Of a stretch of DNA of 64,000 nt, positions 8,906 to 64,000 are shown piece by piece; position 1 is the stretch's first letter; each line of letters opens with the position of its first letter. This DNA is from Scenedesmus sp. PABB004. Its lineage: Eukaryota. The translations under genes were made by a program, and so were the position numbers. The stretch spans positions 868,001 to 932,000 of the forward strand of contig CM026548.1 in the NCBI GenBank assembly GCA_014905635.1, written 5' to 3'. Under the pieces are notes generated by a model that saw only the letters and a program-made list of their open reading frames with translations, did not search any database and had not been told where the DNA came from.

Positions 8906-11286
8906 ATGGCGGCCGGCGCGCTCGCGGACGACGCCGCCGCGTTGGCGGCGCTGGCCGCAAAGTTTGGGGACGACAGCGATGACGCCGAGGGCGCGGTGGC
9001 GCCGGGCGCGCCGGCCCCGCCGCGCGGCGCCGGCGCCGGCGGCAGCGGCGGCGGCAGCGGCGGCGTGGCGGCGCCCGGCCCGCCGCCTCCCGACAGCGAC
9101 GAGGACGAGGACTGGGACGAGGACGACGACGCGGACCTGGACGACGACGACGACCTGTACGCGGCGCTGGAGTGGGCGGACGCGCAGGAGGGTGAGCGCT
9201 GACGCCGCTCACCGTCGCACAAGGCAGCGCCGCGCACAGCGCCCGCCGGCCGGCCGGCGCCTCCGCTGACGTTCCCCGCCCGCAGGGCACGCGGCGCGCG
9301 GGCACGGCGCGCTCGCGTTTGCGGCGGCCGCCGCCGGCGGCGCCGGCGGCGCGCCGCCGCGCCCCAACGCCGCCGGCGGCGCGGCGGCGCGGCGCGCGCT
9401 GCAGCCGGCCGCCAACGCGGCGCAGCGGCTGAGCAGCCGCATCCGCGTGCGCGACGACCCGCTCGACGGCCTCGCCCCCGGCGTGCGCCTCGGCGCGGGC
9501 GTCGCGAACGAGCTGCGCGCCGCGGGCGCCAAGGCCGCGGCGGCGCGGCTGCGTGCGGGCGACAAGAGCGACCGCGCGACAGTCGAGCAGGCGCTCGACC
9601 CGCGCACGCGCATGGTGCGCCGCGCACGCGCCGCGCCACACGCGCGTGCGCCGGCCCGCCGCCGCAACCGCCGCGGCCGCCGCCGGCGGCCCTCCCCCCT
9701 CCCCCGCGCGCGGCCGCCGGCCCGCCCGCCGCCGCCGCCGCCGCCGCATCACCGCCCTCGGCCCGCCTCACCGCCCTCGGCCCACCGCCGCGCCGCCCGC
9801 GCCCCGTGCCGCGCCCCGCCGCGCCCGGCCGCAGGTGCTGTTCAAGATGCTGAACCGCGGCGTGTTCAGCGAGATCCACGGCTGCGTGTCGACGGGCAAG
9901 GAGGCCAACGTGTACAGCGCGCTCAGCCCGGCGGGGGAGCACCTGGCCATCAAGGTCTACAAGACCTCCATCCTGGTCTTCAAGGACCGCGACAGGTGGG
10001 CGAGAGGGAGAGCGGGGGAGAGAGTGCGTGTCCGAGCTGTGCGTGCGGGCTGCGCGTGCGTGTGCGGTGGGCGCGCGGGCGGCGCGCTGCTGCGCTGGGT
10101 GGCGGCGCACGCCCGACGGCCCCCCACCACCACACACACACGCGCGCCGCGCCGCGCCGCCCCAGGTACGTCTCCGGTGACTTTCGCTTCCGCTCGGGCT
10201 ACTGCCGCTCCAACCCGCGCAAGATGGTGCAGACCTGGGCCGAGAAGGAGCTGCGCAACCTGGCGCGCCTGCGCGCCGCGGGCGTGCCCGCGCCCGCGCC
10301 GCTGCTGCTGCGCAGCCACGTGCTGGTCATGGAGCTCATCGGCACAGACGGCGTCGCCGCGCCGCGGCTAAAGGTGGGCGCGCGCGCGGGCCGCGCCGCC
10401 GGCGCCGCTGCCGCCGCCGCGCTCTGCCACTGCCGCTGCCACCGCCGAGCGCTGACGCGCGCCGCTGGCGCCGCGCTCGCAGGACGCGGGCCTGCCGCTC
10501 GCCCGGCTGTGCGCCGCGTACGCGCAGCTCGTGCGCATCGTGCGCACGCTCTACCAGGCCTGCCGCCTCGTGCACGCCGACCTCAGCGAGTACAACATAC
10601 TCGTGCACCAGGCGCGACGCGCGCGCTGCGCGCGCCGTGCGCGCCGTGCGCGCCGTGCGGAGAGGGCCTCGCCGCTGCGGGCCTCCCGGCGGCGGCGCGG
10701 CGCTCGCGGCGCGCCCAGCGCTCGGAGCGCAGCGCGCGCACACAGCAGCGCCGGGGGCGGACAGCGCGCGCGGACTGCGGACCGCCCCTGTTAATCCCTC
10801 CCGCCCAGAGCCTCCACGGGCGCGGGAGTTTCAGATGGGGCGCACAGCGACCGGGAAGATTCGCTGACAGCGCCCGACGCCCGTGGGCGTGCTCTGATAG
10901 TAGCTTCCCCACACCTCTTCCTCCCTCCCTCCCTCCCTCCCGCCCTCCCTCCCTCACCCCCTCCCGCACGCACGCATCCAGCGCCCCCCCCCCACCGCCG
11001 CGGCGCCGCGCCCCACCACCCCCGCCCCGCCGCGGCCGCCGTAAACCCTCGTGCCACGCGCCCCAAACCCTGAACCCCCCAGGGCTCGCTCGTGATCATC
11101 GACGTCAGCCAGGCGGTCGACCTGGACCACCCCAAGGCCCTCGACTTCCTGCGCGAGGACTGCGCCCACGTCAACGACTTTTTCAGGCGCGCCGGCGGCG
11201 GCCTCGGCTGTGGCTGTGCTTTGCCGCCGGCCAGCAGCGCAGCGGGGGCCGCGCGCGGGCCCAGCCTGCGCGCAGGGGCAGCGGCA

Positions 11287-61742: not shown

Positions 61743-63800
61743 ATGCCGGGCGACGCGCGTCGTGCCGTGCCGCCCAACGCAGCGCTGCGCCTGCTGCAGC
61801 GCGAGCTGGTGGCGCACAGGGGCGCGCCGGTGAGCTGCTGGCCGCGAGCTGGCCACGCGCTCGCGCCGCGGCTCGCCCGGGCCCGGCGCAATGCCTGCCA
61901 GCGGCAGGGGAGGCCGCGCGAATGGCGACGCCAGCAATGAGACGTCGCAGACGCCGGCTGCCGCGCTGCGCGCGGCGCGGGGGCAGGCGCCTACACGCGC
62001 GCCGCTGCTGCCGCCGCGCCGCGCCGCGCCGCGCAGGTCCACACCGCCAGGGCGTTCGCCGAGTGCATCCTGCCGACCGACAAGGTGGGGCGCAGCTTGC
62101 TGGCCCAGCAGCGCGCCGCCGCCACGAGCGTTCTCTCGCGCGCGGGCCACATGCTGCCGCCTCCTCTCCGCGCGCAGGTGCTCGAGGTCGAGTCGCCGGA
62201 CGTGCACGTGGGCCGCTTCACGCCCGACGGCACCCACCTGGTGCGCGCTCCCGCGGCCTGCCGCCAGAGCCGCGGAGCAGCTGGTCAGGCGTGCCAGCCG
62301 CGGTCGCCCGGCCGCGGTGGCCCGGCCGTTGGAGCGCCGAGCCGTGGCCGCGCCTCGCCGCGCAGGTGTGCTTCTCGCTGCAGCTACAGAGCCTCGTGCT
62401 CTATGCCTACACCGGCCCCGCGCCCTGCCCGGCGCCGGCGCCCGGCGCGGCGCCCGGCTTTGCGAGCTTCTTTTGCGAGCGCGGCCGCGTGCCGCTCTGC
62501 AGCGGCGGCGAGCAGCTGAGCCGCGACTTCTGCCTCGCGCTGCGGCGGGGCGCGTACCTGCTGCTCGCGTCCAGCGTGCCGAGCCGGCGCGAGGCGGGCG
62601 GCGGCACCGCCGACAACGCCGCGGCGGCGGGCGTCGCGCCCACGGGCGAGCCAGGGCCGGCGCCCGCGCCGCAGCAGGCGGCGGCGGCGGCGGCGGGCGG
62701 CCTGCAGCAGCAGGCTGCGCCCCGACCGCCGGTCAACCCTGGGGCAGCCAGCAGCGACTGGTGCGAGGCGACCACCTTCCACGTGGTGAGGGCTGCGTGG
62801 CGCTGCCGGTCGTGCGCCCCAGCGGCCGAGGTGTCTCATGCCAGCGTGTCGCATGCCCCCCCCCCTCGCAGGTCGACGTGCAGCGCTGCATGAAGGTTGA
62901 GGAGCGCCGCTTCGCGAGCGACTTTTTCGAGCTCGCCGGCAACGGCTGCGCCAGCCTGTTTGACGACATGCTCGCGCTCACCTCGGTGCGCCGCGCGCCG
63001 CGCCGCGCAGCCCGGCTGCGGCGACGCGCGGCGGCGCCTTGCTGACGCCGCCCCGCTCGGCCAACGCGTCCGCTGCAGCTCTACACGCAGACCATCCACC
63101 TGCTGCGAGTGAATGCAGACGGCAGCCTGACCGAGGCGCAGAGCATCGGGCGCTTGACCCAGGCCGACGACCAGCTGCCCATCCAGCTGGCCGCCGAGGC
63201 GGAGGAGCGGTGGCAGCTGGCGCAGGCGCGCGCGCGCATGCGGGCGCACGCTGACAAGATGGCGGCAGTGGGGCAGCAGGTGCTGCAGAACCTGCCGCAG
63301 CTCGCGCAGGCGCAGCAGGCGCAGCAGGCGCAGCAGGCGCAGCAGGCGCAGCAAGCGCAGCAGGCGCAGCAGAGGCCGCCGCCTCCCGCAGCCAGTCGGC
63401 AGCAGCCGCCGCCCCAGGAGCCGGCGCCAGCGCTGCAGGAGCAGCCAGGGCAGCCGGAGCAGCCAGGGCAGCCGGAGCAGCAGCCGGCAGTCGCTCAAGC
63501 GGCGGCGCCGCAGCAGGCGTCGGCGCCACCCGCCAACTCGCTGTGGGCCCAGGTCACGGCGGCCGCGATGGGCGCGGCCGCCGGCGGCCTGGGCAGCGCA
63601 GCGACGGGCCTGGCCCCCGCTGCAGACGCTGCGGCCGCGGCGGCCAGGGCCACCGCCAGGACCCGGGGCAGGGGCGACAGTGCGTCGGACGAGTCTGATG
63701 ACGAGATGGAGCGGCGAGAGCGGCGGCGGCGCGTGCCGGCCGGCCGGCGCCAGCAGGAGCAGCAGGAGCAGCAGGAGCAGGAGCAGCTGCAGCAGCAGTT

Positions 63801-63845
<45 letters not shown>

Positions 63846-64000
63846 GCCGACGGACCTGCAGCAGCGCACGCCGCCGCCTGGCGCGGGGGTGGCGCTGCCG
63901 ATAGGCAGCGCGATTGCAGCTGAGGCCGCCGCCGCCGCGGCCGCGGCCGCGGCGGTGCTCGACCCCGGCGGGCAGCTCATTCAGGGGCTGCGCCAGCGCC
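61743..64000 (+). CDS. DET1: De-etiolated 1 (DET1), 3' end outside window
   Basis: NAALRLLQRE...ARAF...VLEVESPD...RFTPDGTHL|VCFS...LSRDFCL...EATTFHV...FDDMLALTS|LYTQTIHLL...IGR; then a long Gln/Ala-rich insertion. Confidence 0.88.
63302..63843 (+). repeat. Coding microsatellites in DET1: (GCGCAGCAG)n and a poly-CAG tract
   Basis: AQQ repeats about 63304-63372; CAG run about 63802-63843. Confidence 0.85.

Follow-up and report, generated by a model that had tools for sequence, protein, structure and literature searches.

Several described box H/ACA small nucleolar RNAs (snoRNAs) resemble the element reported here, which lies at positions 10784-10916 of a 64,000-nucleotide (nt) stretch of DNA from the alga Scenedesmus sp. 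PABB004 (GenBank assembly GCA_014905635.1, contig CM026548.1, positions 868,001 to 932,000 of the forward strand; hereafter the window, whose own numbering is used throughout). In Ostreococcus tauri, Ot-HAsno1 was reported as a 144-nt RNA with sequence reads that is among the 20 most abundant snoRNAs of that organism, and a lysine methyltransferase gene hosts it in one of its introns. In that survey, snoGPS assigns it to two uridines of 25S ribosomal RNA (rRNA), U2157 for the 5′ stem and U2194 for the 3′ stem, 37 nt apart, and the authors give SNORA62 as its human counterpart (PMC7671301). The supplement of a plant snoRNA survey lists CrACA46 of Chlamydomonas reinhardtii in two copies, and the tables of the same survey score the plant family snoR83 as found in angiosperms only (PMC5122169). 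According to the scoring in the Ostreococcus survey, neither Chlamydomonas nor Picochlorum has Ot-HAsno1 (PMC7671301).

We followed up a first-pass annotation of the window, made from the sequence alone, that had proposed a guide RNA inside an intron of a RIO1 kinase gene. It is very probable that 10784-10916 (+) encodes a two-hairpin box H/ACA snoRNA, a diverged relative of CrACA46, Ot-HAsno1 and snoR83 that serves as a guide for large-subunit (LSU) rRNA. Covariance model R1, built from 64 relatives with the window excluded, produced one match in the 64 kb when both strands were scanned. This match, to a model of both sequence and structure, spans 10782-10919 (+) at full length with 110.1 bits (rough E value of 1.3e-28), a score that is partly circular for a reason weighed below. 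Together with 106 homologous loci, the covariation of the stems and an intron confirmed by Pfam, it upholds the proposal of a guide RNA in RIO1. We infer the ends of the RNA of about 133 nt from the base of hairpin 1 (5′ end) and from a point 3 nt past the ACA box at 10911-10913 (3′ end). The parts of the element and its intron are given below, where A1 denotes an alignment of the 64 distinct relatives plus the window (n = 65).

10612..11082, + strand: host intron, 471 nt, GC..AG, in a RIO-domain kinase gene (Pfam RIO1 profile)
10784..10916, + strand: predicted mature box H/ACA snoRNA, about 133 nt (covariance model and Rfam snoR83)
10784..10788, + strand: hairpin 1 basal stem, 5′ strand GCCCC, partner 10837-10841 (A1 columns 4-8/63-67)
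10789..10797, + strand: hairpin 1 pocket 5′ arm TGTTAATCC, predicted to pair with GGAUUAAC(G) immediately 3′ of the target U
10798..10828, + strand: hairpin 1 upper stem and loop, CTCCCGC 10798-10804 with GCGGGAG 10822-10828 (minimum-free-energy fold, covariation)
10829..10836, + strand: hairpin 1 pocket 3′ arm TTTCAGAT, its TTCA predicted to pair with UGAA immediately 5′ of the target U
10837..10841, + strand: hairpin 1 basal stem, 3′ strand GGGGC (covariation in A1)
10844..10850, + strand: hinge (H) box variant, ACAGCG then A, 15 nt past the upper stem of hairpin 1
10853..10858, + strand: hairpin 2 basal stem, 5′ strand GGGAAG, partner 10904-10909 (covariation in A1)
10859..10867, + strand: hairpin 2 pocket 5′ arm ATTCGCTGA, predicted to pair with (U)AGCGAA
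10868..10896, + strand: hairpin 2 upper stem and loop, 10868-10875 with 10885-10896 (helices 4-6)
10897..10903, + strand: hairpin 2 pocket 3′ arm ATAGTAG (plus G10896 in an alternative register), predicted to pair with CUACUA(UC)
10904..10909, + strand: hairpin 2 basal stem, 3′ strand CTTCCC (covariation in A1)
10911..10913, + strand: ACA box, 14 nt past the upper stem of hairpin 2

Environmental relatives and covariation

Metagenome contigs were searched with a pattern that combined three of the four pocket arms, namely TTAATCCC, a gap, TTCGCTGA, a gap and TGATAGTAG, with 25 fixed bases in total and about one match estimated to arise by chance. The search returned 106 loci with 121 matches, of which 64 were distinct when taken with the flanks included in the alignment, and the full two-hairpin layout was present in all of the loci found. 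The 5′ arms of hairpin 1 (TTAATCCC) and hairpin 2 (TTCGCTGA) are both fixed by the pattern, and the invariance of the former in A1 is no independent evidence. Conservation in A1 was nevertheless seen outside the pattern as well: in the TTCA of the hairpin 1 3′ arm (64 of 65 sequences), in the C that follows TTCGCTGA (invariant), in C-A of the 3′ box, in the bases next to the fixed arms, and in the hinge box, whose first and third A (A-N-A) were invariant or nearly so. The nearest relative of the window was only 71% identical, and thus no close relative of the host is present among the sampled sequences.

In order to follow covariation, we wrote an H/ACA structure of 26 pairs from the window's own stems. 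Across A1, standard pairs were found in 88.2% of 1689 stem cells, versus 34-46% when the partners were slid by 1-3 columns, and both-sided changes were observed in 20 of the 26 pairs. None of 500 shuffles reached the observed value on any of five measures. By stem, changes on both sides affected 4 of 5 pairs in the basal stem of hairpin 1, 6 of 7 in its upper stem (helix 2) and 5 of 6 in the basal stem of hairpin 2 (helix 3). The window itself forms 25 of the 26 modelled pairs, several of them through both-sided changes relative to the consensus; in the upper stem of hairpin 2, 7 of 8 pairs form and column pair 113/157 is G-G.

Four of the metagenome loci (L009, L027, L064 and L078, on contigs Ga0307975_1041697, Ga0307945_1006965, Ga0307963_1004604 and Ga0307972_1007214, respectively) are tandem arrays of the same snoRNA, with 3-4 copies about 260-280 nt apart, which contrasts with the single intronic copy in the window.

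A permissive Rfam scan of 10560-11140 (581 bases, E ≤ 10) gave six weak matches. The top one was snoR83 (RF01227, a plant H/ACA family), which covered 10784-10918 at full length with 29.5 bits (E value of 0.0017), below the gathering score of 40 bits of a model built from angiosperm sequences, and the second was SNORA52 with 20.7 bits. Taken alone, the snoR83 match is a lead only. At gathering thresholds, the Rfam check that the first-pass annotation had recommended gave nothing. When the whole window was scanned at E ≤ 0.05, the sole listing was the bacterial small RNA isrG at 63777-63847 (−), with 29.3 bits against a threshold of 100, which we rejected as most likely a chance match in GC-rich sequence.

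Architecture, box variants and host intron

The landmarks named in the first-pass annotation were exact to the base: ACA at 10844-10846 and 10911-10913, TTCGCTG at 10860-10866, GATAGTAG at 10896-10903, and the stem formed by GGGAAG (10853-10858) and CTTCCC (10904-10909). The minimum-free-energy fold likewise showed the two hairpins with internal loops that it had described, each followed by ACA. Fold and covariation together reveal two pocketed hairpins joined by a single-stranded hinge. In H/ACA RNAs, about 14-16 nt separate the top of the pocket from the H or ACA box. Both hairpins of the window agree with this rule (15 nt in hairpin 1 and 14 nt in hairpin 2), and so do the aligned sequences: from upper stem to box, all 65 have 15 nt in hairpin 1, and in hairpin 2 the distance is 14 nt in 61 of them and 15 nt in the other 4.

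The hinge of the window reads ACAGCG followed by A, with A at the first and third positions and the final A one position late; the caveat of the first-pass annotation, that a canonical ANANNA was missing, was well placed. A canonical ANANNA occupies the aligned hinge in 45 of the 65 sequences, and the 20 non-canonical ones are the window and 19 of its 64 relatives. Most of these also carry the last A one position late, with ACAGCGA in L049 and ACATCGA, AAAGCGA and AGACTGA elsewhere. Because this variant recurs in lineages whose arms and stems are otherwise intact, it is probably tolerated. At the aligned position of the 3′ box, ACA was found in 46 of 65 sequences. The other sequences carry CCA (10 of 65), ATA (6), GCA (2) or TCA (1) at A1 columns 178-180, also with arms and stems otherwise intact. 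The CCA boxes belong to L009 (4 copies), L017, L038, L040, L072, L078 and L087, and we know of no description of CCA as a variant of the ACA box. The hinge- and ACA-box variants across relatives constitute a natural series for testing how strict the boxes are.

The host intron, 471 nt long and bounded by GC..AG, interrupts the RIO domain of a kinase gene at 10612-11082 (+), and the snoRNA lies on the sense strand of that gene. The open reading frame with positions 108-141 of the Pfam RIO1 profile closes at about 10611-10614, and from 11083 the profile continues in another frame with positions 141-178. Since the profile breaks off and resumes at its edges, we take the intron as confirmed. The gaps between pieces of the profile leave at most about 130-150 nt for each of the two upstream introns, and therefore the 471-nt intron has roughly three times their length, in line with the earlier description of an intron several times longer than is typical here. 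The less GC-rich island reported inside it was also recovered, with a G+C content of 0.68-0.75 at 10750-10949 versus 0.85-0.86 at 10600-10749 and 0.83 at 10950-11049.

Three further features of this intron were recorded. Its donor (10612-10613) is GC rather than GT, and an alternative GT donor at 10603 would cost the conserved residues V-H-Q inside the Pfam match. In its 5′ part (10620-10660) a CGCGCCGTG-like unit occurs about three times in tandem, and directly after the snoRNA (10917-10990) runs a C/T-rich tract of CCCT/CCTC repeats.

A ribosome-biogenesis kinase gene that hosts an rRNA guide fits a common pattern among snoRNA host genes, and the presence of this guide in RIO1 is no evidence of co-regulation. 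Within 600 nt of the 106 related metagenome loci, no RIO motif was found (0/106). Because of this, and because the Ostreococcus copy sits in a different gene, residence in RIO1 is specific to the lineage of the window rather than an ancient linkage.

Predicted targets in LSU rRNA

Hairpin 2 fits the CUACUAUCUAGCGAA site of LSU rRNA in two registers. In one of them, UAGUAG/CUACUA and UUCGCUG/UAGCGAA would leave U-C unpaired (6 + 7 base pairs, bp), and in the other, GAUAGUAG/CUACUAUC and UUCGC/GCGAA would leave U-A unpaired (8 + 5 bp). The proposal that this pocket pairs on both sides of the site thus held. For hairpin 1, which the first-pass annotation had left without a target, the site assigned here is the U in GAA-U-GGAUUAAC, which precedes the hairpin 2 sites by 35/37 nt, with 4 + 8 bp: its 5′ arm GUUAAUCC would pair with GGAUUAAC and its 3′ arm UUCA with UGAA, so that the U of GAA-U-GG is left atop the pocket. 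In the predicted duplexes, 14-15 nt separate the target U from the box downstream of it, which is the hinge box for hairpin 1 and the ACA box for hairpin 2.

Both motifs, CATGAATGGATTAAC and CTACTATCTAGCGAA, occur in eukaryotic LSU fragments present as contaminants in bacterial assemblies. The upstream motif was intact in 18 of 23 LSU loci, cut short in 2 and different in 3 (interrupted in L154, one change in L165, and an A at the hairpin 1 target U in L141), and the target uridines were 35 and 37 nt apart in the four LSU loci measured. We also scanned every U of one complete eukaryotic ribosomal DNA (rDNA) unit (L170), whose small-subunit, 5.8S and LSU rRNAs were placed by Rfam, allowing at most two skipped bases and leaving the second register of hairpin 2 unscored. 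The predicted sites ranked first for both hairpin 1 (4 + 8) and hairpin 2 (6 + 7), and bipartite complementarity of the arms around a uridine is hence present in this unit. The same pair of LSU targets as in the described family is indicated by arms that match those of Ot-HAsno1 and by motifs 35/37 nt apart.

In viral contigs, the 15-nt target motif was found at 38 loci, only two of them rDNA-like (L122, cut at the motif, and L141, divergent). L141 is a 104-kb contig filed as viral (IMGVR_UViG_638275798_000001) that contains a eukaryote-like LSU segment, in which an A takes the place of the hairpin 1 target U (CATGAAAGGATTAAC).

In yeast 25S rRNA, the table of a review lists pseudouridine (Psi) 2314 under snR86, and Psi2349 and Psi2351 under snR82 (PMC5699541), in agreement with the snR82 assignment that the first-pass annotation had given. 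The distances from Psi2314 to Psi2349 and Psi2351 are 35 and 37 nt, equal to the spacing of the targets in the window. By spacing, the three target uridines would correspond to Psi2314 (hairpin 1) and to Psi2349 and Psi2351 (hairpin 2). This coincidence with known pseudouridine sites is what gives the target assignment its weight, and the two uridines assigned in Ostreococcus are also 37 nt apart. Nothing informative on the targets of snoR83 was found in the literature searched.

Alternative explanations and comparison with described guides

A number of observations speak against the identification of 10784-10916 as a guide for LSU rRNA. Its hinge, ACAGCG, departs from the canonical ANANNA, and those of the published relatives are canonical, ACATCA in Ot-HAsno1 (which has RNA-seq read counts) and ACAGCA in CrACA46. 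The 3′ arm of hairpin 1 contributes only 4 bp to the predicted duplex, and the targets were scored on LSU rRNA of other eukaryotes rather than on that of the host. Arm complementarity alone is weak evidence, because shuffled arms reached the top score somewhere in the L170 rRNA in 45 (hairpin 1) and 11 (hairpin 2) of 300 trials each. The presumed mapping of the target sites to yeast numbering rests on spacing and on the assignment given in the first-pass annotation. About 25 of the 148 positions of R1 were fixed by the window-derived pattern, which makes the 110 bits partly circular; this does not apply to the model's stems, hinge, loops and fourth arm. The folding energy is ordinary for the composition (z = −1.17, with 24 of 200 shuffles folding at least as well), and therefore support comes from homology and covariation, not from fold energy. 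Finally, Rfam at its curated gathering thresholds gave no match in the whole 64-kb window, and the scan of the whole window at E ≤ 0.05 did not list snoR83.

The ordinary folding energy and the fact that arm complementarity alone is not rare are what could be expected if a functionless pair of hairpins had arisen by chance in a GC-rich intron. Such an origin is contradicted by the 110-bit match to a model free of the window, the 106 homologous loci and the strong covariation, and its probability is close to nil. A decayed copy, that is, a non-functional relic in the intron with the real guide encoded elsewhere in the genome, would account for the hinge box that leaves ANANNA at its last position and for the G-G pair in the upper stem, and we regard it as improbable: the four pocket arms match the family consensus, 25 of the 26 modelled pairs form (several via both-sided changes), and the ACA box and both spacings are intact. 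Moreover, 19 of the 64 relatives also lack the final hinge A, including an identical ACAGCGA in L049, and therefore the variant is better seen as tolerated than as a sign of decay.

The first-pass annotation had offered as a fallback that the locus encodes two single-hairpin guides; such independent RNAs, each with an ACA at its end, are known from trypanosomatids or archaea. Hairpin 1 is indeed followed, 15 nt from its pocket, by ACA (10844-10846), and the canonical H box is missing. Comparison with the relatives does not favour this fallback, since the two hairpins form one unit with a short hinge throughout A1 (65 of 65 sequences), the A-N-A of the hinge joins the hairpins at fixed spacing in 64 of 64 relatives, and the hinge is a normal ANANNA in 45 of 65, often starting with ACA. 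In addition, the Ostreococcus relative is reported as sequenced as a single 144-nt RNA (PMC7671301). We consider two separate guides very improbable, even more so than a relic.

As a two-hairpin guide, the RNA would be freed when exonucleases trim the RIO-kinase intron after splicing and debranching. It would then assemble with the dyskerin/Cbf5 pseudouridine synthase complex and its partners (in this class of RNA, dyskerin/Cbf5 is accompanied by Nop10, Nhp2 and Gar1), and the complex would convert three uridines of LSU rRNA to pseudouridine. We infer release, assembly and pseudouridylation in the host from what can be read in the DNA itself, namely architecture, boxes, spacing, homology and arm fit.

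The element is a diverged addition to a known snoRNA family and no new kind of system, and as such an ordinary annotation find. With it, the annotation of a very GC-rich genome gains, at the correct place, a guide for rRNA pseudouridylation that Rfam misses at its curated thresholds. Beyond the first-pass annotation, the guide now has a target for hairpin 1 and a family, so that both pockets are assigned to a cluster of conserved LSU rRNA pseudouridines. The family has many environmental members, hosted in different genes. A wider reading, which we put forward as tentative and rather doubtful, is that of an ancient dual-guide family that extends from angiosperms to Chlorophyceae, Mamiellophyceae and uncultured eukaryotes of marine and saline-lake environments, with looser boxes than the textbook ones. 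The late-A hinge that recurs in several lineages and the clade with CCA for ACA are its basis as far as the boxes are concerned, and two surveys score the family as lineage-restricted (PMC5122169, PMC7671301). If the RNAs with variant boxes are functional, algal H/ACA particles would tolerate boxes that standard snoRNA finders reject.

The published sequences were compared with the window by eye only, in the form in which the surveys print them. Ot-HAsno1 and the window both contain CTGTTAATCCCT, GGAGTTTCA(A/G)ATG, TTCGCTGACAGC and TCTGATAGTAGCT, and their arms are equal except for one base in the hairpin 1 3′ arm (A for G in Ot-HAsno1). Both are intronic two-hairpin H/ACA RNAs with two predicted LSU uridines 37 nt apart. 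Ot-HAsno1 differs in its lysine methyltransferase host, in its hinge (ACATCA) and in its length (144 nt versus about 133 nt in the window), and its stems and loops are unlike those of the window through compensating changes. CrACA46, as printed in the supplement, has the same arms as the window, including the A before TTCGCTGA, and a hinge, GGGGCGCACAGCA, almost identical to GGGGCGCACAGCGA of the window; it differs in that its H box is canonical (ACAGCA), its hinge is longer and it is listed in two copies. snoR83 shares the hairpin 2 5′ arm TTCGCTGA, and its hairpin 1 arms TAATCC and ATTCATG, as given in the plant survey, suit the same rRNA site as those of the window (PMC5122169). Its hairpin 1 3′ arm reads ATTCATG rather than TTTCA, and the window scores below its 40-bit threshold. 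Judged by their printed sequences, snoR83, CrACA46 and Ot-HAsno1 appear to be one family under three names.

Human SNORA62 (E2) is absent from the six Rfam matches at E ≤ 10 for the region, where SNORA52 is found instead. The yeast sites listed in the review table match those of the window by spacing, snR82 with hairpin 2 and snR86 with hairpin 1 (PMC5699541), and snR86 is described as about 1000 nt long (PMC2551606). Yeast snR82 additionally guides Psi1110. Yeast thus divides between two separate RNAs, snR82 and snR86, the tasks that in the window are predicted to fall to one.

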